From positions 1 through 39,409 of IMG/VR virus record IMGVR_UViG_3300027386_000002: 39,409 nt of DNA, one strand, 5' to 3'. The notes below the pieces were generated by a model. The model saw only the letters and a program-made list of their open reading frames with translations, made no database searches and was not told the origin of the DNA. Position 1 is the stretch's first letter; each line of letters begins with the position of its first letter. This DNA comes from a virus. This document shows, piece after piece, positions 1 through 39,409 of this stretch. The translations under genes and the position numbers were made by a program.

Positions 1-99
1 CTAACCAGCGGCGTGGATACGTGGATAGTGATGTGGATAAGCGGCGCTATTATGCCCGACTCGACGGGGGCTTGTTCCATATCCCTCGACAGCAATAGT
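1..99. repeat. Terminal 99-bp overlap identical to 39311-39409; circular or terminally redundant genome with a true unit of about 39310 bp
   Basis: The first 99 nt (ctaaccagcggcgtggatacg...cagcaatagt) recur exactly at the window end. An exact fixed-length overlap is typical of a circularised assembly. Confidence 0.9.
13..40 (+). repeat. Three direct GTGGATA heptamers upstream of conserved element copy A
   Basis: gtggatac at 13-20, gtggatag at 21-28 and gtggataa at 33-40. A related pair (gtggatgg, gtggataa) precedes copy C at 23340-23365. Confidence 0.7.
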
Positions 100-138
100 C
101 CCGTACGGGGCGGAGTAAGGGGCCTGTAATCCAGACCT
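55..138 (+). repeat. Conserved approximately 83-nt element, copy A (CCCGACTCGACGGGGGC-N14-TCGACAGCAATAGTCCCGTACGGNGCGGAGTAAGGGGCCT-N1-2-AATCCAGACCT)
   Basis: By manual alignment it is near-identical to 10457-10539 and 23379-23461. All three copies lie on the plus strand. Variation is confined to a 14-nt internal segment. Confidence 0.85.
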
Positions 139-170
139 ACCAGAGAGCTTGTGGTGAAGGGGCTTGGAGA

Positions 171-256
171 ATCGGCGCTACTGGGAGCGTATTGGGGGCG
201 TCCCTGTGAGATCGGCGCATAGGCCTTGTTGCTGGGCCTATTGGCCAGATCGGCGC
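171..256 (+). repeat. Three direct ATCGGCGC octamers spaced 40 and 38 bp apart
   Basis: atcggcgc occurs at 171-178, 211-218 and 249-256. Two of the three are preceded by G, which creates GATC. Confidence 0.7.
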
Positions 257-287
257 TTAGAATGGCGTACAGCGGCTCGTATCAAGA

Positions 288-791
288 GGCTGCGCTGCCG
301 GTTGTTTTGGCCCGTACGGGCTTATCGGTGATGCTGGCTCGCCGTCCTGCCCGCCCTTCCTAGTCTTGTGCCCCCTTCCCCTGCTGCCTCTTCGTCCGGC
401 GAAGGAAGAGAGCCTAAGCGGCTGTGCTGGTCGCTTTGTCTTGGTCGTGGCTGGTAGGGTAGTGGACTGGGGCCCGGTCTCCTGCGCTCCGCCTTGGCCT
501 TAGCGCCCGTCGTCTGTTGCCTTGGCCTTGTCCTACCTCCGTTGCGCCTATATCCCGTCGCGGCTCGGGTGGTGCGCCCCTTGCCGCTGACGGCCTAGTA
601 GGCCCTACGGGCTGTACGGGGGTAGGGGGCGGCACTCTAACGGTGTGAGCTTAGCGGGCCGCGCTCCCCTTTCCCGTTTCCCCCCAGCGCCGCCCTCGTG
701 CGTCGGAACGGGGCCGCTGGCCTCCCCGGCCCTCCTTCCCCCCATCGCCGCCCGGCATTGCTGCGTTCTCATCGGGCCGATGGGCAATGAG
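288..791 (+). repeat. Macro-repeat unit 1 (about 504 bp) of the A-depleted array
   Basis: It starts ggctgcgctgccggttgttttggcccgtacgggcttatcggtgatgctggctcgcc. The segment 437-640 aligns to 941-1144 with only 13 substitutions. Confidence 0.8.
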
Positions 792-1191
792 GGCTGCGCT
801 GACGGTTGTTTTGGCCCGTACGGGCTTGTCGGTGATGCTGGCTCGCCGTCCTGCCCACCCTTCCTAGTCTTGTGCCCCCGGCCCCTTCGGTCGTGGTGGT
901 GGTGGCGATGGCGGCTTGGAGCCGTGGCGACTTTGTTCTTTGTCTTGGTCGTGGCTGGTAGGGTAGTGGACTGCGGCCCGGTCTCCTACGCTCCGCCTTG
1001 GCCTTAGCGCCCGTCGTGTGTTGCCTTGGCGTTGTCCTACCTCCGTTGCGCCTATATCCCGTCGCGGCTCGGGTGGTGCGGCCCTTGCCGCTGACGGGCT
1101 GGTCGGCCCTACGGGCTGTACGGGGGCGAGGGGCGGCGCTCCAACGGCGGGAATCGTCGTAATTGGCTGGGTGGGCTGCGGCGTCGAGACA
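792..1191 (+). repeat. Macro-repeat unit 2 (about 400 bp)
   Basis: It has the same start motif (ggctgcgctgacggttgttttggcccgtacgggcttgtcggtgatgctggctcgcc) and the same internal order as unit 1. Confidence 0.8.
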
Positions 1192-1470
1192 GGCTGCGCC
1201 AACGGTCCTCTTGGCCCTACGGGCTTGGCGGTGGTGCTGGCTCGCCTTTCTGCCCACCCTTCCTAGTCTTGTGCCCCCGACCCCTTCTGTCGTGGTGGTG
1301 GTGATGGTGGGAGCATGGGAGCACAGTGGCTTTGTTCTCTGTCTTGGTCGTGGCGGGTAGGCCAGTGGCTTGGGGCCCGGTCTCCTGCGCTCCGCCTTAG
1401 CCGCTCGGCCCGTCGTGTGATGGCTGGGGCCTTGGCCTTGTGTAGTGCGCGGTGGCCTCCTTAGCGGGCG
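1192..1470 (+). repeat. Macro-repeat unit 3 (partial, more diverged)
   Basis: It starts ggctgcgccaacggtcctcttggccctacgggcttggcggtggtgctggctcgcc. It continues with the ccttcctagtcttgtgccccc and gtcttggtcgtggc blocks seen in units 1 and 2. Confidence 0.7.
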
Positions 1471-1720
1471 GCTGACGGTTCGGTATGATAGCGGTTGTTT
1501 TGGCCGCCTTGTCCGGGGGGTAGTCTCTTGGGCGCTCGTCGTAGTTGGCTGGGTGGACTCAGACGCCGCTGCGGCAGCGCTTCGCGGGCCTTCGCTGGGG
1601 CAATCGTAGTAGTTGGCTGGGTGGACTCAGGCGCCGCTGCGGCAGCGCTTCGCGGGCCTTCGCTGGGGGCGGCTGACGCGTCGGTATGATAGCGGTTCTC
1701 TTGGCCGCCCTGTCCGGGGG
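1469..1720 (+). repeat. Pair of 52-nt direct repeats about 200 bp apart (cggctgacgNNtcggtatgatagcggttNtNttggccgccNtgtccggggg)
   Basis: 1469-1520 and 1669-1720 differ at only a few positions. Confidence 0.75.
1536..1669 (+). repeat. Tandem duplication of a 68-nt unit, two copies
   Basis: The unit tcgtNgtagttggctgggtggactcagNcgccgctgcggcagcgcttcgcgggccttcgctgggg occurs back to back. A third partial copy lies at 1151-1190. Confidence 0.8.
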
Positions 1721-2501
1721 CTGTCGCCCACCCAACTGCGCTGCTCCCCCATCCCCCCGGGTACCTCCCCGTCCGCTGCTCGCCCCCCCCCGTGCTCTTC
1801 TGATGGGCCGTGTGCTCACCAGCGATGTGACGGGAGCGTACGCGATACTGGCTTGGATGTTGTTCGCGGGGGTCTGCGCGTCGTGTGCTTGTCCGGTGTG
1901 TGCCGTCTGCCCTGTCTCGGTATCGTCAGCTCATCGTCGCTGGTTTCCCGCGTCATTCTGTAGCGGCTCTGCTGCGTCGGTTGACGGGCCGTGTGCGTCC
2001 CAGCCCGCCCCGTGCGCTGTTCGGCCTTCGCTCGCTCCCCCGCTCGGCCTGTCCTTCCTCTCCGCACCGAAGGGCGGCACTGTTCGATCTGCGGTCACGG
2101 TGGGGTCGTGGCGGCCTCTCGTTCGTTGTTTTGCGCTGTGTCCGTCTGCGTCGGCGTCGGGCTGTTGTTGTGCATGCCTAACGGTGGTCGCCTCCTCTCC
2201 TTACGGTGATGGCTGCGTTGGCCGCCCGCTCCTGAGTTGCCAGCTTGAGGCCCCGTCTTGGTCGCTGGGTCCGTCTCTGCCCCCCCCCGTCCCCTCGCGT
2301 TCGGCCTCCTGCGATTGTGTGGGTTTTGCTTTGCCGAGCGTTCCTGTCCGTTTCTCGGGGGGGCCACCCCCCCAGTCCGCTGCTCCCCCTTCCCTTCCCC
2401 TCCTCCCCGTCCGCTGCTCCCCCCACCCCGATGGGGCTTCTTTTGCCGCTGCGCCGACGTGTGATGTGTGCCCTACGGGCTTAGCGGTAATGCTGGCTCG
2501 C

Positions 2502-2575
2502 GGGAGGGCTTCAGCGGCTCGCGCCATCGGTGCAGTTGCAAGGAGAGTCGGCGGTGATGTGGCGCTGCGCTGATG
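2502..2575 (+). repeat. Left copy of an approximately 75-nt direct repeat bracketing the AT-rich block
   Basis: gggagggcttcagcggctcgcgccatcggtgcagttgcaaggagagtcggcggtgatgtggcgctgcgctgatgg aligns with 2814-2888. Confidence 0.7.
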
Positions 2576-3059
2576 GAAAATGCTTACACGCTCCTCCAAT
2601 TTCCAATTTTCACATCATTTGCCTCGAAATCGGGGCTGAGCGTCGTGAAATCTTGACGGAGAGCCTTGTTTTCGCGACGGAGAGCCTTGAAAACCGTTCA
2701 AATTTGACGAGAAATCGCGTCAAAAAAAATTTCTGTCGGAATTTTTGGAGAGACGAGAAATCAACGCAGATTTGCCATGATCGCGTCAAAAAAATTTCTC
2801 ATAGTAAAGTTTTGGAGAGGGCTTCAGCGGCTCGTGCCATCGGTGATTTTGCAAAGAATGTCAACGGTAGCGTGGCACTGCGCTCAGGCGAGAAACAGAC
2901 GCGGCGCAGCGGGAAACTAAAACGGGAGCACGGGATTTAAAGAGAGGGAGCACGCGGGAGCATGGCGGAGCGGAGCATTGCTGAAATCGGGTCAGAAAAA
3001 AATTTATCGGAAGTGAAGCCCTAAACGCGTCCCGTCGTCGTCGCCACCAACCCGAACCA
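2576..3059. promoter_or_regulatory. AT-rich non-coding block with iteron-like repeats; candidate replication origin or regulatory region
   Basis: gaaatcgNgtcaNaaaaaaatttNt occurs 3 times (about 2714-2734, 2780-2800, 2988-3008), ttttggagag twice and gacggagagccttg twice. Composition drops sharply in GC relative to both flanks. Confidence 0.35.
2814..2888 (+). repeat. Right copy of the approximately 75-nt direct repeat
   Basis: ggagagggcttcagcggctcgtgccatcggtgattttgcaaagaatgtcaacggtagcgtggcactgcgctcagg is roughly three-quarters identical to 2502-2575. Confidence 0.7.
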
Positions 3060-3088
3060 ATTATACTTGACAGTCTCCATCAAGTCAA
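3060..3088 (-). promoter_or_regulatory. Near-consensus sigma70-type promoter (TTGACT-17 nt-TATAAT) firing toward lower coordinates into the non-coding region
   Basis: The minus strand reads tgccTTGACTtgatggagactgtcaagTATAATtgg. The -35 box is at 3088-3083 and the -10 box at 3065-3060. No ORF of 60 aa or more lies downstream on the minus strand. Confidence 0.6.
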
Positions 3089-3156
3089 GGCATCACGCAT
3101 GGCGTCAACCGTCGCATCTGTTGCCGTGGTATCCCTTGCCTTGTCGGCCTTCTCGG

Positions 3157-3909
3157 TTACACCACCAGCGTTTCTCGTATCGTCAGGGACGCATTAATCA
3201 GCTTGGAGAACCTCTCTTCGGCAATATTGAGTCCCCCTCCTCCTTCCTGTCCTCCCCCCAGTTGCCCATAGATCCACACATCGTCATCATTGACCATCAC
3301 CGTCCCATATTCGCCTGCTTCGAGCACCACCGTTTCAATCTCATCGCGCTGTCCATCCCTGAGCTTCTCCCACTGTATCTGCATCGTTCTCCAGACCCCG
3401 ATGGCGGCGGCTCCATCCTGCAGCCCTTCCCTTGTCGGCGCGAAGCCCAGCAGCGAGTTAAACACATTGACGCGTGCCGGTTGTGCGTTCAGCTCCACCA
3501 GCCTCCCCGTCACCACTCGGGCGCACTCCAGCCGTCCCCCCTCATCCGTTTGCGGGAACGCGATACGCACCTCATCGACAGCGCTCCTCGTCCGGACCGT
3601 AGCCACAAAGACGCGCCTTGAGTCATCGACCGTCAGGATGAGCGTTTCGATGATCCTGTTATTGTTGAGCAGCATCACCGTCGCGTCTCCCAGCAGGTTA
3701 CAGCCCACGATCCCGACGAAGTCGATCACGTTTCGCCCTCTCTTCAGCATCGTGGCCGTATAGACTCGTTGTTCATCGGCGTGCCGTGTGATCATCTTCC
3801 TTCTGAGGCTTGGCGTGGCCAGATTATCGGCCAGGCTGCCCGTAGCCAGCTCATTAGGCGTCAGCGTCACCCTTTGGAATGGGAAGACCGTACCAAAGGC
3901 CAGTGCCAT
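3157..3909 (-). CDS. Virion/tail structural protein (250 aa), paralog of the 37486-38256 product
   Basis: The track ORF starts at TTG 3927, whereas ATG 3909 has GGAG 8 nt upstream. The blocks MALAFGTVFPF, LRRKMIT, IDFVGIV, RLECARVVTGRLV and W..L...QRDEI align with MAISLATSFPF, LRRRLIT, INFVSII, RLETALIIAGELV and W..L...ERDEL of the paralog. Confidence 0.75.
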   Translation of the reverse strand: MALAFGTVFPFQRVTLTPNELATGSLADNLATPSLRRKMITRHADEQRVYTATMLKRGRNVIDFVGIVGCNLLGDATVMLLNNNRIIETLILTVDDSRRVFVATVRTRSAVDEVRIAFPQTDEGGRLECARVVTGRLVELNAQPARVNVFNSLLGFAPTREGLQDGAAAIGVWRTMQIQWEKLRDGQRDEIETVVLEAGEYGTVMVNDDDVWIYGQLGGGQEGGGGLNIAEERFSKLINASLTIRETLVV

Positions 3910-8668: not shown

Positions 8669-9682
8669 ATGGCAATAAAGGTCAACGCATCGGGAGGGGA
8701 GCACGACCTGTGGCTGCCCGGCGACGAGCGCATCGAGGACTTGGAGCTGTTCACCAGCCAGCAGTTGGGCATGAACATCACGCCGGAGATGGTCCTTTCC
8801 CGCAGCAAGAAGAACCAGCAGTACAAGCGGGCCACGGCGCTGACCCGGCAGCAGGTCGACACCATCCTGTCGGTCAAGGAGCACCGGCGCACCGTCGTCC
8901 GGGGAGCGCACAGCCTGGGCAAGTCCGTGGCCATAGGCGTCTTGGGCTGTTGGTGGCTGACGCGCAAACGCGACAACATGGTGCTGATGGCGTCCGCCAA
9001 AGAGGATCAGGTGTCCAAGGTGCTGTTCCCCAACATGTTGGGCCACTACGTCCGGGCGTTCGGTAGGCGCGGCAAGCTGGGCGCACTGCAGGTCTATCCC
9101 GACCAGCTCGCCCATCCCAAGTGGTGCGCCATAGGCATCAGCGGCCAGAACACCGAGGCTTTCGCCAGCTACCACCCGCACGGCGACGGCGAGGTCTTGC
9201 TGGTAATCGATGAGGGCAGCGCCATGACCGACGCGCTGGCGCAGGCGGCCGAGGGGCTGATAAGCAGCGAGGCGGCGCGGATAGTGGTGCTGGGCAACCC
9301 GCTCAACACCCAGCCGCGCGATCCCTTCCGCGCCTTGTTCACCGACAAGCAGTACAATAGGATTCACTGGAAGACCAGCGAGCATCCCAACATCCAGCAT
9401 CAGAGGCCGATCTATCCTGGTTGCATCTCCCAAAAATGGATCAACGAGATGATTGAACGGCACGGGTTAGAGTCCGACCAGGTTCAGGCGCGTTGCTTCG
9501 GGGAGTTCCCGCCCATCAAGACCGACTCCGAGAAGGGCAAGCTCATCGACGTGAATGCCGTTGCCCAGTCATCGGGCTTGACCGTCGAGGAGATATTGGC
9601 CGAGATGCACAGCGAGGAACCGGAAGTAAAGGACCTGTTCCATTTCGTGGGGCAGGGACACACCTACTCACAGGGGGTATGA
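8669..9682 (+). CDS. Terminase large subunit, ATPase domain only (337 aa)
   Basis: It has Walker A VRGAHSLGKS and Walker B VLLVIDEGS, plus a linker-like motif FGEFP. The ORF stops about 60 aa later, with no RNaseH-like nuclease domain. Confidence 0.7.
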   Translation: MAIKVNASGGEHDLWLPGDERIEDLELFTSQQLGMNITPEMVLSRSKKNQQYKRATALTRQQVDTILSVKEHRRTVVRGAHSLGKSVAIGVLGCWWLTRKRDNMVLMASAKEDQVSKVLFPNMLGHYVRAFGRRGKLGALQVYPDQLAHPKWCAIGISGQNTEAFASYHPHGDGEVLLVIDEGSAMTDALAQAAEGLISSEAARIVVLGNPLNTQPRDPFRALFTDKQYNRIHWKTSEHPNIQHQRPIYPGCISQKWINEMIERHGLESDQVQARCFGEFPPIKTDSEKGKLIDVNAVAQSSGLTVEEILAEMHSEEPEVKDLFHFVGQGHTYSQGV

Positions 9683-10500
9683 TGAGACTACTATCGAACG
9701 ACGAGATCAAGGCCGGGTGTCAGGCGGCCAACATCATCCAGATGAGAGGTTGGGGCATCCGCGCCAACAGTCCCTTGGTCGGCAAGGGCGCGTTGGTCGA
9801 GGTGAAGGTGCAGGGCGGTGAGTGGTCCAACGCCAAAACGGGCGAGTCCGGGCAGATATGGAACATAGAGGCTTCATTCGTTCAGGAGATAGACGACCGC
9901 TCCGAGATCATGAACGTGCTCGACCGGATCATGGGCGAGGGGCCGATAGGGTTGTATGAGGATATATTCGCTCAGGGGTTTCGCAACCAGTTCGCCGCGA
10001 TATGCTGCCAAGGCAACATGCCAAGGGCACGGACGTTGATGCCGGCGTTCAAGCCCGAGGCGGAAGCATCGACCAGCGCCGCCAAGCGCGGATGCGCCAA
10101 CAGGGAGACCGAGGTAGCGGTGGAGTTTCAGGACATAATGAGCAATGCGACGACGAAGTGGTCGCCCTTCCAGCGACGCAACTATGCCAGGCCGAGGGAC
10201 AAGGCCGCGATCCACGGGCGCGAGTTGGCCAAGGCTACTACCATAGCCGTGGCGACGCATCCGACGCAACAGGGGATTAGTAGGATCAACCGCAGCAAAG
10301 GGGAGCAGCCCGCTCTGGATGCGCTATTGGCCGGTTGTTGGATACTCAATCGGGAGATCCAGAGGAGGTCGTTCAGGCCAAAGGCGGGGCCCAGAGCCGA
10401 CGAGCGTGGGGCATCACTGGACAGCGCCACGATGGCGCGATCGGTAGCAGAATCATCCCGACTCGACGGGGGCATCCTCCGTTTTCCTCGACAGCAATAG
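9679..10500 (+). CDS. Hypothetical protein (273 aa)
   Basis: Its start forms an ATGA overlap with the preceding stop. The N-terminal 110 aa or so look globular (KGALVEVKVQGGEWSNAKTGESGQIWNIEA has a weak OB-fold flavour). The C-terminal half is low complexity. The last 20 codons are read out of conserved element copy B. Confidence 0.5.
   Translation: MMRLLSNDEIKAGCQAANIIQMRGWGIRANSPLVGKGALVEVKVQGGEWSNAKTGESGQIWNIEASFVQEIDDRSEIMNVLDRIMGEGPIGLYEDIFAQGFRNQFAAICCQGNMPRARTLMPAFKPEAEASTSAAKRGCANRETEVAVEFQDIMSNATTKWSPFQRRNYARPRDKAAIHGRELAKATTIAVATHPTQQGISRINRSKGEQPALDALLAGCWILNREIQRRSFRPKAGPRADERGASLDSATMARSVAESSRLDGGILRFPRQQ
10421..10437 (+). repeat. Left copy of a perfect 17-bp direct repeat (acagcgccacgatggcg) flanking element copy B
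   Basis: The identical 17-mer recurs at 10542-10558. It contains the mini-hairpin cgcca-cga-tggcg. Confidence 0.9.
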
Positions 10501-10539
10501 TCCCGTACGGCGCGGAGTAAGGGGCCTCAATCCAGACCT
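10457..10539 (+). repeat. Conserved approximately 83-nt element, copy B
   Basis: It aligns with copies A and C. It lacks the upstream GTGGATA heptamers and sits inside a 104-nt segment (10438-10541) bounded by the 17-bp direct repeats. Confidence 0.85.
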
Positions 10540-10541
10540 GA

Positions 10542-10558
10542 ACAGCGCCACGATGGCG
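10542..10558 (+). repeat. Right copy of the 17-bp direct repeat
   Basis: acagcgccacgatggcg is identical to 10421-10437. Confidence 0.9.
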
Positions 10559-10635
10559 TGGTTGTAAGTTTAGCTTGGCTTAGGCGGCCAAAAAGAGGGC
10601 CGCCACGCCATAGCTTGAGTTATAGGATAGCACAC

Positions 10636-10687
10636 GGGCCGCCCTCGTCGCGCTGACGCGCGTTTTCGGGCGGCCCTTCTCTTTGTT
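10636..10687 (+). terminator. Rho-independent-type terminator after the packaging block
   Basis: The stem GGGCCGCCC / GGGCGGCCC encloses an inner cgcg hairpin and is followed by TTCTCTTTGTT. Confidence 0.5.
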
Positions 10688-11063
10688 CGGACGTCTTAGA
10701 TTTGAACTTAGGTAGTAGTCGCGTTTTGCCCCTCCCCACCCCCCGGGCCTTCCATTCTTGATAATCGTTATTTAAGGAGTAAAAACAGCAGATAGGGAGC
10801 GGGTGGTTGGTGGCGGGTTGGTCTGGCGTGGTTGGGCTTGGGTGCTGGAGAGCGCACAGTCTGGTGTGTGTAGTGGGCGGGTGCGCTGGCAGTCTCTACC
10901 GTCTTGTGTAGTTGTCCCCTTTAGGTGTTACCTTCTGTTCCCTTTGGGTATCAGTGCGCGTGCCGGTTGTGGCCGCGTGGCTGGGTGCATGTTTTGCACG
11001 TTGTAAGCAATTGTCTTGCAACGAGTTATGGGCAAGTTAATTGTTTCACATGGAACAATAGTT

Positions 11064-13838: not shown

Positions 13839-14108
13839 ATGGTTGATCCAGTAAGGCGCGGCGACGGCTATAGCAAGGGAGATGGCAACGGCAGCGGAAG
13901 GGGATGGGGAGACGGTAGCGGATTCGGTTCGGGATTCGGTTCGGGATTTGGCAACGGCGAGGGCAACGGAGGAGGTTGGGGAGACGGTAGCGGGAGCGAT
14001 GACGGTAGCGGTAGCGGTAGCGGTTCGGGATTTGGCAACGGCGAGAGCGACGGAGGAGGTTGGGGAGACGGTAGCGGGAGCGGGAGGGATGACGGTAGCG
14101 GAGACTAA
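13839..14108 (+). CDS. (Gly-X)n repeat protein with W/F at X positions (89 aa), cassette copy 1
   Basis: The sequence is MVDPVRRGDGYSKGDGNGSGRGWGDGSGFGSGFGSGFGNGEGNGGGWGDG... The SD is gcaggag. Its paralog lies at 15786-16145. Confidence 0.65.
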   Translation: MVDPVRRGDGYSKGDGNGSGRGWGDGSGFGSGFGSGFGNGEGNGGGWGDGSGSDDGSGSGSGSGFGNGESDGGGWGDGSGSGRDDGSGD

Positions 14109-15785: not shown

Positions 15786-16145
15786 ATGGAAGGTTCCGAG
15801 CGCAGAGAAGCAATGCTAAACGGCGACGGCGACGGCGAGGGCAACGGGAGCGGTTGGGGTAACGGCTATGGAGACGGCAGCGGTTGGGGCAGCGGATACG
15901 GCGACGGATGCGGCAACGGATGCGGCAACGGATGCGGCAACGGGATAGGCGCAGGCAACGGGCGCGGTGACGGCTATGCCAGTGGCGCAGGAGACGGTCA
16001 CGGAGCCGGTTGGGGTAAAGGCGCAGGAGAAGGCGACGGCAAGGGAGACGGCTACGGAGAAGGCAACGGGTGGGGAGACGGATACGGCAGCGGCAGCGGC
16101 ATCAGCAACAGCATCAGCAACCCAAGGAGAGACAACGTTGAATAG
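15786..16145 (+). CDS. (Gly-X)n repeat protein with W/Y/C at X positions (119 aa), cassette copy 2
   Basis: The sequence contains GDGDGEGNGSGWGNGYGDGSGWGSGYGDGCGNGCGNGCGNG...GWGDGYGSGSG. Confidence 0.65.
   Translation: MEGSERREAMLNGDGDGEGNGSGWGNGYGDGSGWGSGYGDGCGNGCGNGCGNGIGAGNGRGDGYASGAGDGHGAGWGKGAGEGDGKGDGYGEGNGWGDGYGSGSGISNSISNPRRDNVE
15906..15941 (+). repeat. Perfect 3 x 12-nt tandem repeat (ggatgcggcaac) inside the Gly-X gene
   Basis: Three exact copies encode GCGN three times. Confidence 0.9.
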
Positions 16146-17408: not shown

Positions 17409-17603
17409 GGGGCGGTGGCTCGACATCCGGGGCGGTGGCTTCGTCTAGTCCGCCAGTCATCGCCCCGGCCTCATTGAAGCGACGGGCACCGCAGATGGGT
17501 CGTTCTGGCTGCATTTTCTTTCCGGGGTGGAAACGCCCCGGCCTCATTGAAGCAAGCAAGCAAGCACCAACGAACTGGCGAGGGTCCACCTGTGCTCTTG
17601 CCT

Positions 17604-23378: not shown

Positions 23379-23461
23379 CCCGACTTGACGGGGGCATATT
23401 CCATTTCCATCGACAGCAATAGTCCCGTACGGCGCGGAGTAAGGGGCCTCAATCCAGACCT
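23379..23461 (+). repeat. Conserved approximately 83-nt element, copy C
   Basis: It aligns with copies A and B. It ends 23 nt before the tail-fibre ATG and 9 nt before its AAGGAGA SD. Confidence 0.85.
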
Positions 23462-30984: not shown

Positions 30985-33900
30985 TTAAATGCCAAGGAAG
31001 TTAAAGAAGCGCCTAATGATTCCCTGAAGTGCCGGGTCGAATTCAAAATCGCCAAAGAAGCCGTCGTCGTTCCTCGGGGCCAAAGAAACCAGTATGCCGG
31101 TGCCGACAGTCGAGAAGGTGTTGGCTTCATGGGGAGCGAGCAAGATGGTAGTGACGCTGAGGCTGACGGGAACGGGTAGCTGAGCAAACTGCGCTTCAAA
31201 CGATTGGATGGTCTGATCGACGGCAGCCCTGTAAGAGCCAACGAACTGCTGGTAGTAGATACGCGCACCCACCTCATAGCCCTGGAAAGAGCCTTGGGGC
31301 TGGCGCAGTTGGGTGTCAATCGAATCGCGCATGCGGCCGGTTACGACTGGACAAAGCTCGCGCAACCGCTGTTCAACCAGCGCGGTGATCTGCATGAGGA
31401 ACTCGAGATTACTGCCTTCGAGGTGCGGCGGCACGAACTCAGTGGTGTTGGGCAAGAACCATACCTCAACGGAAGGGATGCTTTGGCCGTTATCATCGGC
31501 GGGACTTATCGCGGGGACGACGTTGAGGAAGCCCCCGTGGGTGAGGTTCTCTTTGAGGGCGTTTCCTTCCGCGATGGCCGTTGGGATGACGCTGTTGTAG
31601 TCGTCGTCGTCAATCGCGTCAGAGTGGTTCGATCCGATGATGAGGCCGAAGCGTTCGCCTTCTTGATAGGAGTAGATGCCAATGGTGACGTGGAGCAGGC
31701 TACCGGTCACGCCCCCTTGGATGATGCCGAGGATGGAGTTGGCGAGGTTTAGCGCGTCCGTAGCAATAGGGGTGTCGAAGTCGGCCGGGTCCAGCGATGG
31801 GCGAGGGTCGTAGTCTCTGTAGTTGTCCGTATCCGCATCGTCCGGGTCGCCACCAATGATATTGCCGTCTATGTCGTACACGGTGAACTCGCCGGTAGTC
31901 TCGTCCAAGACGGTGAAGTATCCAGTGGCCGGGTCATACGAGAAGTCAGGAGCACCTTCCATCAGGAAGAAGACGCCGTTGCGGTCGATGCCTATCCAGC
32001 GGTCGCCTATCGCGTCGTAGAAGTAGGGGAAGAACCGCTGCCCTATGTCGATGGGGCCCTGATCAACGCGGCCACCGGGCCTCTGACGGGGAACGCCCAT
32101 TTGCGGGGGGATGATGTTGAGGTCTTCGAGCGGGATGGGGTAGCCCTCCTCATCGACGATGACCGGGCGGCCATGCTGATCGAGTCCAATCCAATGGCCA
32201 ATCGTATCGTCGTAATAGATATCGCCGACGTAGGTGTCCGGATCATATTCATCGATGCCGCCGTCGCCAGTTCGGTCTTCCGGGCGGGTTATGTTGGCCC
32301 ATATCGGGTTGCCATTGTCGTCCGTGCCCACCTGTTCGCCGCCGGGGAAGTAGCCTTCGAGGTTCGCTTGGACGACGTGGCGGCCACCGGACTGTTCCTG
32401 GACGAAGTGCCCAATCTCCGGGTCGTAATACATGTTATCGGGCAGCGTGGCGAACATCTGGGCGAGGCGTTGGCGTCCATTGGGCGTCGAGTCGTCCGGC
32501 AGCTCGGTAATGGGTATCGGCGGAGTGCCGTCCGTGAACTCCGCCCGGTCTATCTCGACATAGCCCCGGTTAGAGTCGTAGAAGTAGAGCGTCGGATCTG
32601 ATCCGCCGAGCGGGTTCCTTGGGCTGTCGAATGCACCCCGGGGCGGACGGCCTTCGGTATCGAAGTGGTCTGAGAAGTCCGCTTGAATGACGTGGCGGCC
32701 TTGTGAGTCTATCTCAATGAAGTGCCCAATCTCCGGATCGTAATAGACGTTATCCGGCAGGCTGGAGAACAGGTTGGCGAGGGCGCGGCGTCCGGCGGGC
32801 GTGCTGGCGTCCGGCAACTCCGTGCGGGGGATGGGGCCTTCGCCGTCGGAAAACTCACTGCGATCTATCCTGTAGAGTCCGACGTTCGGGTCGTAGTAGT
32901 AGAGGTCGGGCTGGGCCGGGGAGGCGTCGAAAGAAGGATCGGGCCGATCTTCGTCAACCGGAGTGCCGCCACCGCCACCGGTATCGCCAGTGCCACCGGT
33001 ATCGCCGCTACCAGGAACATCGCTCCTGCCAGTGCCACCGGTATCACCGCTGCCAGTACCGCCCGGGTCGCCGTAATCGTATATGATGACCACGTTGCGG
33101 GGATCAATATCCAAATGGAGGATTTGGAGATAAAGAACAATGACATATTCAATCTCGCTCTCGTGGACTGGCCAGTCGGGGCGACCATAGACGGTGGAAA
33201 CAAGGTCAGAATAGCGTACCTGTAATTCAACGTCGTCGTCGTCATCTACTGTCGTGGGCTTGGCCGCGATGAAGCCAGCGGGATTGGCACCCGGGCTCTC
33301 ATCCTCGTCGTCATCATCGTCGTCCGAGGGGGTCTGGCCTAACGTTCCTCCTTGCTGAATCTCGATCTGACGGCGACGTTCATCCTCTTCACGCTGTCTG
33401 CGCCGCCGATCCTCTTCCTCTTGTTGACGCCGTAGAATCTCTTGCTCTATAAGCTCCTGTCGGCGTCGTTCCTCTTCGGCGCGCCGCCGGTCTTCTTCCG
33501 CTTGGCGGCGTCGTTCGGCCTCCGCTGCTTGGCGGCGTCGTATCTCATCTTCCAGCGCTTGCAGGCGACGCCGTTCTTCTTCGGCCTCCTCTTCGCGCCT
33601 GCGTTCTTCTTCCTCGCGACGCCGCCGTTCCTCTTCTTCTTCCTGTTCACGCCGCCGGCGGTCCGCCTCCTCCTGTGCCCGTCGTTCGCGCCGCCGTCTA
33701 TCCGCCTCCTGCTGTGCACGTCGTCGCCGGTCGGCCTCTTCCTGTGCACGTCGTTCGCGCTCTTCTTGTTCGCGTTGCTCTCGTTCGCGCCGGCGGCGGT
33801 CGGCCTCCTCCTGGATCAGTCTATCCCGCTCCTCCCGGTCTCGGTCGCGCTGTTCTTGTTCGCGACGCTCTCGTTCCTCTTGTTCGCGCCGCCGCCGTTC

Positions 33901-34581
33901 CGCTTCTTGTTCGCGCCGTTCCCGCTCTTCTTCCTCGCGCCGTTCCCGTTCCTCGCGCCGCCGCCGTTCCTCAATCTGACGGCGCATCTCCTCTTCGCGC
34001 CGACGACGATCCTCTAATTCGCGGTCTTCGCGTTCCTGCTCCGCTTCCCGCCGCCGGTCTTCTTCCTCCTCAGCCTCAAGACGTCGCCGTTCCTCTTCGG
34101 CTTCCCGTCGCTCCCGTTCAGCTTCGCGCTCCTCTTCCTCCCGTTCGCGCCGTTCATCTTCCTCTTCTTGACGCTGACGTTCCTCCTCATCATCATCGTC
34201 ATCACCAGAAGGGGTGCGGGGCTGGCCCAGTGTTCGCCGTTGTTCCGCTTCGATTCGACGCCGACGTTCTTCGGCCTCTCTTCGCGCCCTCAGTTCGCGT
34301 TGTCTGCGCTCCTGTTCCTCGTAGGCTTCTATAGCCGCACGGCGACGACGGTCGGCCTCATTTCGACGCCTATCTTCCGCCTGGCGCCTCTGAATCTCAA
34401 GGATAGGGTTAGAACCGCCGGCCGCTTCGTCCGAGTCGAAGCGCTCAAGGTCATCACCACCGGCGGGCTCGTCCGAGTCGAAGCGCTCAAGGTCATTGAG
34501 TTGACCGCCGCCAACGTCATCGGGGTCTTGGCCACTCGAACGGGTGATAATCACCTCGTTGGGATGAAACCAACGGGCCAT
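30985..34581 (-). CDS. Large virion protein (1198 aa): Glu/Arg-only helical segment, Gly-rich linker, tandem beta-hairpin repeat modules and a C-terminal globular domain; possible internal/ejection or tail-needle protein
   Basis: Its start forms a TGATG overlap with the upstream stop. Residues about 62-430 are almost exclusively E/R/Q/A/D. GDTGGTG repeats follow, then YYDPEIGHF-type repeats. The gene order does not fit a canonical tape measure. Confidence 0.7.
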   Translation of the reverse strand: MARWFHPNEVIITRSSGQDPDDVGGGQLNDLERFDSDEPAGGDDLERFDSDEAAGGSNPILEIQRRQAEDRRRNEADRRRRAAIEAYEEQERRQRELRARREAEERRRRIEAEQRRTLGQPRTPSGDDDDDEEERQRQEEEDERREREEEEREAERERREAEEERRRLEAEEEEDRRREAEQEREDRELEDRRRREEEMRRQIEERRRREERERREEEERERREQEAERRRREQEERERREQEQRDRDREERDRLIQEEADRRRREREQREQEERERRAQEEADRRRRAQQEADRRRRERRAQEEADRRRREQEEEEERRRREEEERRREEEAEEERRRLQALEDEIRRRQAAEAERRRQAEEDRRRAEEERRRQELIEQEILRRQQEEEDRRRRQREEDERRRQIEIQQGGTLGQTPSDDDDDDEDESPGANPAGFIAAKPTTVDDDDDVELQVRYSDLVSTVYGRPDWPVHESEIEYVIVLYLQILHLDIDPRNVVIIYDYGDPGGTGSGDTGGTGRSDVPGSGDTGGTGDTGGGGGTPVDEDRPDPSFDASPAQPDLYYYDPNVGLYRIDRSEFSDGEGPIPRTELPDASTPAGRRALANLFSSLPDNVYYDPEIGHFIEIDSQGRHVIQADFSDHFDTEGRPPRGAFDSPRNPLGGSDPTLYFYDSNRGYVEIDRAEFTDGTPPIPITELPDDSTPNGRQRLAQMFATLPDNMYYDPEIGHFVQEQSGGRHVVQANLEGYFPGGEQVGTDDNGNPIWANITRPEDRTGDGGIDEYDPDTYVGDIYYDDTIGHWIGLDQHGRPVIVDEEGYPIPLEDLNIIPPQMGVPRQRPGGRVDQGPIDIGQRFFPYFYDAIGDRWIGIDRNGVFFLMEGAPDFSYDPATGYFTVLDETTGEFTVYDIDGNIIGGDPDDADTDNYRDYDPRPSLDPADFDTPIATDALNLANSILGIIQGGVTGSLLHVTIGIYSYQEGERFGLIIGSNHSDAIDDDDYNSVIPTAIAEGNALKENLTHGGFLNVVPAISPADDNGQSIPSVEVWFLPNTTEFVPPHLEGSNLEFLMQITALVEQRLRELCPVVTGRMRDSIDTQLRQPQGSFQGYEVGARIYYQQFVGSYRAAVDQTIQSFEAQFAQLPVPVSLSVTTILLAPHEANTFSTVGTGILVSLAPRNDDGFFGDFEFDPALQGIIRRFFNFLGI

Positions 34582-38813: not shown

Positions 38814-39314
38814 ATGATGACCCAATGCGAAGGATGTAGCGTTCTAATAAGCCAGCCAGCAAAGGGAAGGCGTAGGAGATTCTGTAGCGATGCTTGTAGG
38901 AAAAGACTGCGTCGTATAGAGAACGGTCCTAACTATCCCGTAATAGAGTGCGCCAATGAAGGATGCACAGAGCGCTTTGAGAAGTGGAGCCATAACCACC
39001 GATTCTGTTCGGCTACCTGTAGGAATGCGGCCCAGTATCGGCGCAATAAGCCCCCATCAGAGGAAGTATGGATAGAGTGCGCTTCTGAATGGTGCAATGA
39101 GCATTTCAAGCGCGTCCACCCAAACCAGCGCTATTGTAGCGCTTCTTGTAGAGGCGGCGATATATCCATGTTCGGCGATCCATTGCCAGAAGATTGGGGA
39201 GAGCGGCTGGAGGAGAAGGCTAATCAGCGGCGAGCGTCTAATGGAAGACCCATAAAGCCCGGACAAGGATACTCTTTACCCTATCCGGGGCGAGCGGCTA
39301 ATGGAGAAGACTAA
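38814..39314 (+). CDS. Triple FCS/TRASH-like zinc-finger protein (166 aa)
   Basis: AGGAGG lies 5 nt before ATG 38814. It has three repeats of C-x2-C-x11-13-(F/Y)CS-x2-CR: CEGC...RFCSDACR, CANEGC...RFCSATCR and CASEWC...RYCSASCR. Confidence 0.7.
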   Translation: MMTQCEGCSVLISQPAKGRRRRFCSDACRKRLRRIENGPNYPVIECANEGCTERFEKWSHNHRFCSATCRNAAQYRRNKPPSEEVWIECASEWCNEHFKRVHPNQRYCSASCRGGDISMFGDPLPEDWGERLEEKANQRRASNGRPIKPGQGYSLPYPGRAANGED

Positions 39315-39409
39315 CCAGCGGCGTGGATACGTGGATAGTGATGTGGATAAGCGGCGCTATTATGCCCGACTCGACGGGGGCTTGTTCCATATCCCTCGAC
39401 AGCAATAGT
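39311..39409. repeat. Terminal 99-bp overlap identical to 1-99
   Basis: It is an exact duplicate of the window start and includes the first 45 nt of element copy A. Confidence 0.9.

Follow-up and report, generated by a model that had tools for sequence, protein, structure and literature searches.

Several kinds of short repeated sequence invite comparison with the element described here. Small non-autonomous repeats of bacteria include the miniature inverted-repeat transposable elements (MITEs) and the REP/REPIN, Correia and ERIC families. The nut sites of lambdoid phages and the put sites of phage HK022 depend on defined hairpins (boxB and two stem-loops, respectively), and iteron/DnaA-box replication-origin modules occur in plasmids and phages. 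The promoter-early stem-loop (PeSL) cassettes of T4-type phages combine a σ70-like promoter with a terminator stem-loop and are present in many copies in hyperplastic regions (Arbiol et al. 2010, PMC2839356; Comeau et al. 2014, PMC4122927). Here we analyse an element with a core of about 80 nucleotides (nt) that occurs in the uncultured phage genome IMGVR_UViG_3300027386_000002 (39,409 nt, the whole of which is called the window below), and in particular its copy B, which lies between two perfect 17-nt direct repeats at the 3′ end of a gene adjoining the terminase. A first-pass annotation of this DNA had noted that these repeats resemble a target-site duplication or a microhomology-mediated insertion and had suggested that the element may be mobile or spread by recombination. 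We find that the 17-mers are two copies of a small hairpin-forming sequence which has been duplicated locally, independently of the element, at the 3′ end of the upstream gene, and that the element is a non-coding, non-palindromic module specific to a clade of uncultured sponge phages. Our confidence is somewhat better than even that it is, as a whole, a cis-regulatory module which is gained and lost by recombination and to which the 17-mers are unrelated.

The 17-mer ACAGCGCCACGATGGCG is present on the + strand at 10421–10437 and again, without a mismatch, at 10542–10558, as had been reported. The 104 nt between the two are the reported segment with copy B and consist of a 19-nt linker, the 82-nt core and the trinucleotide TGA (Table 1). 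All other matches to ACAGCGCCACGATGGCG in the window carry three mismatches (0.30 expected; 0 of 100 shuffles reached 4), and an exact repeat of this length was never obtained in shuffled flanks (0/1000). The repeat is longer than the 17-mer, in that it extends to 21 nt at 20/21 identity (CTG[G/A]ACAGCGCCACGATGGCG), beyond which similarity is not significant on either side (p = 0.20 and 0.94). Each copy can form the mini-hairpin noted earlier, with 6 bp, a 3-nt loop and folding energies of −10.1 and −8.6 kcal/mol. The statements of the first-pass annotation on the upstream open reading frame (ORF) also hold: its 272 codons end in …DSATMARSVAESSRLDGGILRFPRQQ followed by a stop codon, and removal of 121 nt would make it end in …DSATMAWL and a stop. 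As independent assemblies from other samples (L001, L003 and L004) have the same arrangement of repeats and element, the structure is not an assembly artefact. A putative partial remnant of the element 5′ of the left 17-mer was rejected as not significant.

The nature of the repeat pair can be judged from related strains, which are contigs from Aplysina aerophoba sponge metagenomes. By DNA identity in the upstream gene they form two clades: W, which comprises the window and contig L031 (94%), and R, which comprises L010–L012, L032/L033 (97% to L010) and L030 (92%); identity between W and R is 78–81%. The junction after this gene exists in five different states, the breakpoints of which lie at or inside the element. 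The state that matters most is that of L031, which is 92% identical to the window in the downstream flank and 94% in the gene and has both 17-mers but no core. As L031 has the duplication without the element, the 17-mer pair is not the scar of an insertion, and the claim that element insertion made the duplication is contradicted. The first-pass annotation had itself named homologous genomes that always carry both 17-mers without the element as evidence against its reading; L031 is an allele of this kind, although it is one contig and ‘always’ does not apply. That a repeated element is flanked by perfect direct repeats is not in itself proof of transposition, and in this case one natural allele overturned that reading.

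The same comparison delimits the unit that varies. The window and L031 differ by an insertion or deletion (indel) of ~85 nt, the ends of which match the core boundaries to within a few bases. In clade R, L010 and L033 are 97% identical in the gene, yet the left halves of their cores are ~25% apart; the half-element of L032/L033 is followed by an unrelated stretch of ~590 nt, in which a small ORF and a terminator are found, and the sequence then rejoins the L010 flank at TTCACATTGGGCT. Because of the discrepancy between gene and core in L010/L033 and because of the ~85-nt indel in clade W, we infer that alleles of the element are exchanged as blocks between genomes. The earlier suggestion that the element spread by recombination fits these data, as copy B behaves as a discrete unit, the indel has the bounds of the core and the junction is a hot spot of cassette exchange; for the same reasons recombination fits better than MITE-like or homing-like mobility. 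Finally, as the core is present at this junction in L010–L012 and locus A is orthologous in the two clades, the element was probably at these junctions before the clades split.

Table 1 Features of the element, its surroundings and the states of the copy B junction (positions refer to the window)
Feature	Position or contig	Strand	Description
Core copy A, 83 nt	55–137	+	Starts 50 nt after the stop of an HNH-endonuclease gene; orthologue in the sister clade (L021–L023)
Core copy B, 82 nt	10457–10538	+	CCCGACTCGACGGGGG, 16-nt variable stretch, TCGACAGCAATAGT, ~10-nt variable stretch, GCGGAGTAAGGGGCCTCAATCCAGACC
Core copy C, 82 nt	23379–23460	+	56 nt after the stop of a gene for a 93-aa membrane-anchored protein
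Three GTGGATA iterons	13–40	+	5′ of core A; include a putative consensus DnaA-type box TGTGGATAA at 32–40
Second putative consensus DnaA-type box TGTGGATAA	23356–23364	+	15 nt 5′ of core C; the sole other one in the genome
Upstream gene P0001, 272 aa	9682–10500	+	Directly after the terminase-ATPase-like ORF 8669–9682; no known domain
Left direct-repeat copy	10417–10437	+	In the lineage-specific 3′ tail of the upstream ORF; 6-bp hairpin; counterpart in L031
Linker CGATCGGTAGCAGAATCAT	10438–10456	+	19 nt, unique in the window; first 10 nt kept in element-less L031
Right direct-repeat copy	10538–10558	+	Abuts the 3′ end of the core; forms a hairpin; perfect 17-mer at 10542–10558
Two strong hairpins 3′ of copy B	10583–10690	+	Conserved in L031
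Junction state 1	Window		17-mer, linker, core, 17-mer
Junction state 2	L031		Both 17-mers with only CGATCGGTAGTTAGGCTAG (19 nt) between them; no core; downstream hairpins intact
Junction state 3	L010–L012		Core directly after the stop codon of the same gene; no 17-mer anywhere
Junction state 4	L032/L033		Same stop as L010, then left half of the core, diverged ~25% (nhmmer E = 3.5e-4)
Junction state 5	L030		CRISPR-like mini-array that begins at the stop codon's 3′ side without a gap

Repeat finding and a profile search recovered exactly three copies of the element in the window, all on the + strand; the first 45 nt of copy A recur at 39365–39409 owing to the overlap of the contig ends. An alignment of these copies with two from the sister clade (relA and relB) defined a core of 81–83 nt that is built from three conserved blocks. 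Block 1 (CCCG[A/G]CT[C/T][G/T]ACGGGGG) is followed by a 16-nt stretch of variable sequence and fixed length, block 2 (TCGACAGCAATAGT) by a variable stretch of ~10 nt, and block 3 reads GCGGAG[T/C]AAGGGGCCT(G)[T/C]AATCCAGACC. Tails conserved 3′ of the cores are significant only between A and relA. The core is under purifying selection comparable to that on coding sequence. Copies A and C lie just after, and copy B overlaps, the stop codon of a + strand gene; the 3′ end of copy C is 24 nt from the start codon of the tail-fibre gene (23485). Locus A is orthologous in both clades, where the core follows the HNH gene, the upstream block is 91% identical and the downstream tail can be aligned as well (p = 0.001); 10 contigs, which stem from at least 9 samples, show no difference in copy C or anywhere else in its intergenic region; copy B is polymorphic but always found at one gene junction.

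Copies of the core within a genome resemble each other more closely (89–93% in the window, 85% between relA and relB) than they do their orthologues in the other clade (83.5% for A and relA, 78% for B and relB). Certain bases are common to all copies of a genome and distinguish the lineages, such as CCCGACT and GGAGTAAGG in the window as against CCCGGCT and GGAGCAAGG in the relative. The copies of the core therefore evolve in concert, either through gene conversion or because all of them co-evolve with a single trans-acting factor. GTGGATA iterons lie upstream of A and C but not of B, and this heptamer is enriched in the genome (9 occurrences, 2.6 expected); the iteron block upstream of A has a counterpart in the sister clade, with 91% conservation across 47 nt. 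Since 62 nt are inserted between the boxes and the core at locus A of the relative, iterons and core are separable modules.

The core has a variable spacer of fixed length between two invariant blocks, keeps one orientation, follows stop codons, is under purifying selection and changes in concert, and considering these features it is likely to be a cis-acting signal. In the reading that we favour, it would be an orientation-dependent cis-regulatory signal at the boundaries of transcription units that is read by a co-evolving phage or host factor; this is the least secure step of the argument. The predicted function may be that of a non-canonical promoter, of a termination, antitermination or processing signal, or of a part of an origin. 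Copies A and C would be constrained units coupled to the DnaA-box-like iterons, C being invariant across samples, and B would be a dispensable solo copy in a junction where strains exchange short cassettes, namely the full element, a diverged half-element with 590 nt, a mini-array of clustered regularly interspaced short palindromic repeats (CRISPR), or nothing. Recombination via the conserved flanks, when related phages infect the same cell, and not transposition, would account for the gain, loss or replacement of copy B as a block. As repeated homology, the element may also promote modular exchange, as PeSL cassettes do in T4-type phages. On the gene tree, loss in L031 is the more parsimonious direction for the polymorphism of copy B.

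Each of the described systems shares some of these properties. Like PeSL cassettes, the element is a short, repeated, non-coding intergenic phage module that borders the sites where close relatives differ by an indel or a replacement; for both, a double role is proposed, as a regulatory signal and as portable homology for module swapping, and a possible 207-nt duplication or circle junction in contig L021 (see below) recalls PeSL mini-circles; unlike them, it has no promoter or terminator consensus, only a 4–5-bp hairpin, and just three copies, two of which are fixed and coupled to iterons. With MITE-type repeats it shares a length of ~80–100 nt, multiple copies, a location in intergenic regions or over gene ends, presence or absence among strains and the ability to extend an ORF, but it lacks inverted repeats or palindromes, a target-site duplication and a cognate transposase, and it keeps a single orientation at conserved loci. 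The nut and put sites are likewise few, nearly identical and aligned with transcription, they lie between a gene and the terminators that follow it, and they co-evolve with a phage factor; the element differs from them in having no supported structure and one dispensable copy. The direct GTGGATA repeats with a perfect TGTGGATAA 5′ of A and C, in a block conserved between the clades, are reminiscent of iteron origins. However, the boxes are separable from the core (by 62 nt in the relative), copy B has none, an AT-rich unwinding region is absent, and three origin-like sites would be unusual in a phage of 39 kb. The element can be regarded as a variant of known repeated regulatory or recombinogenic phage cassettes.

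The insertion scenario of the first-pass annotation can be retained only if a MITE-like or homing-like element made a 17-bp target-site duplication and L031 is the footprint of an imprecise excision that kept both copies. We consider this very unlikely, even though perfect 17-mers bracket the segment, the element is multi-copy and present or absent among close strains, and an HNH endonuclease gene adjoins one copy (A, and only A). Element-less L031 keeps both 17-mers, and an allele with a single 17-mer was not found; the empty-site protein that had been predicted (…DSATMAWL) was missing from an exact look-up among ~15 billion proteins. Further copies with flanking duplications of their own do not exist among A, C, relA and relB, the longest exact flanking repeats of which are 0–8 nt, no better than in shuffles. 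Terminal inverted repeats are absent from every copy (best end-to-end score 4–5 versus 5.4–6.0 in the null, p > 0.8). Domains of transposases, integrases or recombinases were found neither in the scanned ORFs nor among precomputed Pfam assignments, many ORFs being without any annotation. MITE-like mobility finds no support. Nor does homing-like mobility, as copy B carries no separate ORF, conservation within the region is lowest in its flanks and its removal restores no conserved sequence. There are, moreover, only three copies, of which A is at an orthologous locus in the two clades and C is invariant across samples, the left edge of core B lies 19 nt inside the left repeat, and at this junction the core of the sister clade is free of flanking repeats. 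The observation that removal of the segment restores an ORF end is correct as frame arithmetic, but it carries no weight because the C-terminal tail of the upstream gene differs in every lineage. A recent copy-paste gain is a more serious contender, if still an unlikely one: a copy of the element, templated by C, by A or by a co-infecting relative, would have been inserted in the line of the window, by illegitimate or short-homology recombination, between duplicated hairpins with a 19-nt spacer that the ancestor of the window and L031 already had, replacing 9 nt, and the element would be mobile by recombination with a preference for the ends of + strand operons. The coincidence of the indel with the element boundaries speaks for this, as do the repeat of L031, which seems to extend through GTAGTT where that of the window is cut at GTAG by the element, the closeness of B to C (92.7%), the acceptance of unrelated cassettes by the junction in other strains, and the disparity between gene and left half-core in L010 and L033, which implies that alleles move between genomes. 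But the sister clade has the element at the same junction, which would call for two independent arrivals or for loss and regain; the change is a replacement of 9 nt by 94 nt and not a clean insertion; B and C differ at 6 of 82 positions, so B is not a fresh copy; and no homology was found between the flanks of B and those of A or C.

That the core acts as a functional RNA (a small RNA, a nut/put-type antitermination site or a 3′-untranslated processing or stability signal, with the 17-mer hairpins as accessory stabilisers) is doubtful. Its orientation is strictly that of transcription, each copy is just after or overlaps a stop codon, and B has a stop codon on one side and a terminator-like hairpin on the other, an arrangement like that of λ nutR between cro and tR1; the loop of a small conserved hairpin (CCCG-N6-CGGG) varies, and concerted evolution would suit co-evolution with an RNA-binding factor. 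Yet this hairpin, of 4–5 bp and −6.3 kcal/mol, is the only one in the core, which folds less well than shuffled sequence on both strands (z = +0.9 to +1.5). RNAalifold, applied to four copies, found 12 pairs with one compensatory change, forming a 4-bp hairpin and a larger helix that is broken in L010. Rfam 15 gave no match for the copy B region at the gathering score or at E ≤ 10. With the Rfam, folding and RNAalifold results all negative, identity as a structured RNA was rejected, and a guide-RNA role of the 16-nt variable stretch was rejected too, as its antisense matches in the genome are at chance level; in addition, B can be absent. Searches in and beside A, B and C found no σ70-type promoter or intrinsic terminator consensus, although the promoter type of the host may be non-canonical. 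Hardly any credence is due to the idea that upstream proteins receive a common C-terminal peptide module (…RLDGG-x5-RQQ, then a stop) from the left half of the core. All five full copies do keep an open frame of 15 codons ending at an invariant TAG, several substitutions are synonymous (CGA/CGG, CTC/CTT, GGC/GGG), and the frame continues the upstream ORF in the window and is in frame after the stop in L010. The frame in L010, however, directly follows a stop codon and has no start, those of A and C differ from the frames of their upstream genes, relA has 62 nt inserted upstream, the L032 version contains a stop, the 3′ half has 1-nt indels, codons 7–11 change non-conservatively (H/R/P, P/H) and the tail of the upstream protein is unconstrained across lineages; the stops and indels in relatives effectively refute the coding peptide.

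Several points weigh against the view of the element as a cis-regulatory module gained and lost by recombination. L031 is a single 1-kb contig, and its seemingly longer repeat (…GGCG[CGATCG]GTAGTT as against …GGCGTAGTT in the window) weakly suggests that the element-less state is the older one and that B is a gain. Orthology of the right junction of B between the clades is weakly supported (p = 0.03–0.16). With two clades and five full copies, gene conversion and co-evolution with a trans-acting factor are inseparable as causes of the concerted change. The sequence TGTGGATAA, which we take to be the DnaA-type box, occurs twice as a perfect match where 0.94 are expected, which is not strong alone, and the analogy with PeSL cassettes is positional only because the copies have no promoter or terminator consensus in or beside them.

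A search of GenBank phages gave no DNA match (portal proteins at most 26% identical) and hence no close relative, and none were found in IMG/VR via the terminase and portal; exact-pattern scans of IMG/VR gave no further copies, a scan of JGI metagenomes gave only the same phage and 7 chance matches, and a scan of GTDB gave 3 chance matches within one unrelated bacterial gene. A search with the tail fibre, aimed at locus C of the sister clade, returned matches confined to a widespread repeat domain. The case yields a small module, specific to its clade, that an uncultured phage of Aplysina sponges carries at three boundaries between transcription units, together with a recombination hot spot beside the terminase genes at which close relatives carry different short cargos. 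If the element is both a regulatory signal and a recombination handle, the idea of mobile regulatory cassettes derived from PeSL would extend beyond T4-type phages, and the junction would be a concrete locus for conflict between phages in a host-associated microbiome.

The start of the gene upstream of copy B overlaps the stop of the terminase-ATPase-like ORF as ATGA, and the match to the terminase large subunit is confined to that 337-aa ORF; the 272-aa product has no Pfam, PHROG or (by sequence search) PDB match and may be a split or highly divergent nuclease half. Its homology with relatives ends near 10410, beyond which the tail is lineage-specific, and in the window the ORF reads into the core of copy B and stops at the conserved TAG of the core (10498–10500). 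The first of the two hairpins downstream of copy B (10583–10605) has z = −4.4, and the second (10636–10676) is terminator-like, with UUCUCUUUGUU behind a GC stem of 9 bp; the hairpins place copy B in the 3′ untranslated end of the operon on the terminase side. A 288-aa variant of the upstream gene (P0095, L004) was rejected as an Illumina adapter chimera: the contig ends at L004 5324–5388, L025 ~510–568 and L033 ~1672–1705 are Illumina/Nextera adapter and create false protein C-termini.

CRISPR-like arrays were encountered at two places in these genomes. At the copy B junction of L030, the mini-array occupies 1317–1406; its repeat, which has no Rfam match, resembles a type I-E repeat (24/29 to the E. 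coli repeat). Its 32-nt spacer matches the same upstream gene in rival strains (window ~10156–10190). Against L010 it matches at 27/32 positions, the seed is intact, every mismatch falls on a third codon position and the matched stretch follows an AAG motif; against the window it matches at 26/34, and against the recoded copy of L030 itself at only 22/34, with mismatches at seed positions 4–5. Judged by these matches, one phage appears to target others by means of this array, as has been described for archaeal viruses (PMC6858448). The second place is 5′ of the helicase gene. Here the window has an intergenic mini-array (17422–17553) with an intact 37-nt repeat of the CRISPR-DR16 type (17517–17553, 31.3 bits) and a second repeat (17422–17480) with a 22-nt loop expansion (35.6 bits; gathering score 35). 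The 36-nt spacer GACGGGCACCGCAGATGGGTCGTTCTGGCTGCATTT matches none of the DNA compared, apart from a 12-nt reverse-complement match to the fifth spacer of L010 that is likely due to chance. At the orthologous position L010 (17746–18140) has a full array, in which six repeats alternate with five spacers that are 34–36 nt long and had no targets in the DNA compared; its 37-nt repeat GTCTCCCCCTGCTTCGGTGGGGGGAGCGGATTGAAAC is of a different type from that of the window, and a spurious 171-aa ORF from the database gene caller overlies the array. These virus-borne arrays may be more interesting than the element itself.

At locus A of the sister clade, scaffold L021 (2504–2759) re-enters the iteron block after the core, 207 nt upstream, at a GAGCGG microhomology. 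The junction reads …GGTGAGCGG/CTAACCAGCGG…, and the point of re-entry, CTAACCAGCGG…, is exactly the first base of the window. It could be a tandem duplication, the junction of a circle of iterons and core, or a scaffolding artefact. A more far-reaching idea, to which we assign only a small probability, is that phages associated with sponges have a cassette-exchange system not yet described, for which the element would serve as recognition or homology site, marking junctions at which small accessory cargo, including mini-CRISPR arrays against sibling phages, would be loaded and swapped; the 207-nt junction of L021 would then be a circular or tandem intermediate.

The window is circularly closed or terminally redundant, because positions 1–99 equal 39311–39409 (a contig of ~39.3 kb). 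Next to copy A, the region 140–3157 is mostly without a convincing gene: the caller of one assembly predicts a 295-aa ORF at 1686–2573, which has no Pfam or PHROG match, and that of the other predicts nothing between 4 and 3157. It contains long imperfect repeats at spacings of 504 and 399 nt, a 68-nt tandem pair (1524–1659) and many palindromes of the GGCCCGTACGGGC type, and it is much shorter in the sister clade. Positions 1–2000 have a GC content of 65–68% and a strong excess of T over A. An isolated perfect direct repeat occurs at 2504–2521 and 2817–2834 (the 18-mer GAGGGCTTCAGCGGCTCG, 313 nt apart), and another short perfect one is found in L032 at ~1731 and ~1935 (GTCCCAAGAGTTCAAA, ~204 nt apart), within the 590-nt cassette that stands there in place of the right half of the element. 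A 1198-aa ORF on the − strand (30985–34581), without a Pfam or PHROG match, has extensive internal repeats rich in Arg and Glu (families D2, D6, D7 and D14). Long glycine-rich tandem codon repeats (GGN-GAC-GGN…, with periods of 12 to 84 nt) are located at 13860–14100 and 15800–16120, inside two + strand ORFs of the early region.

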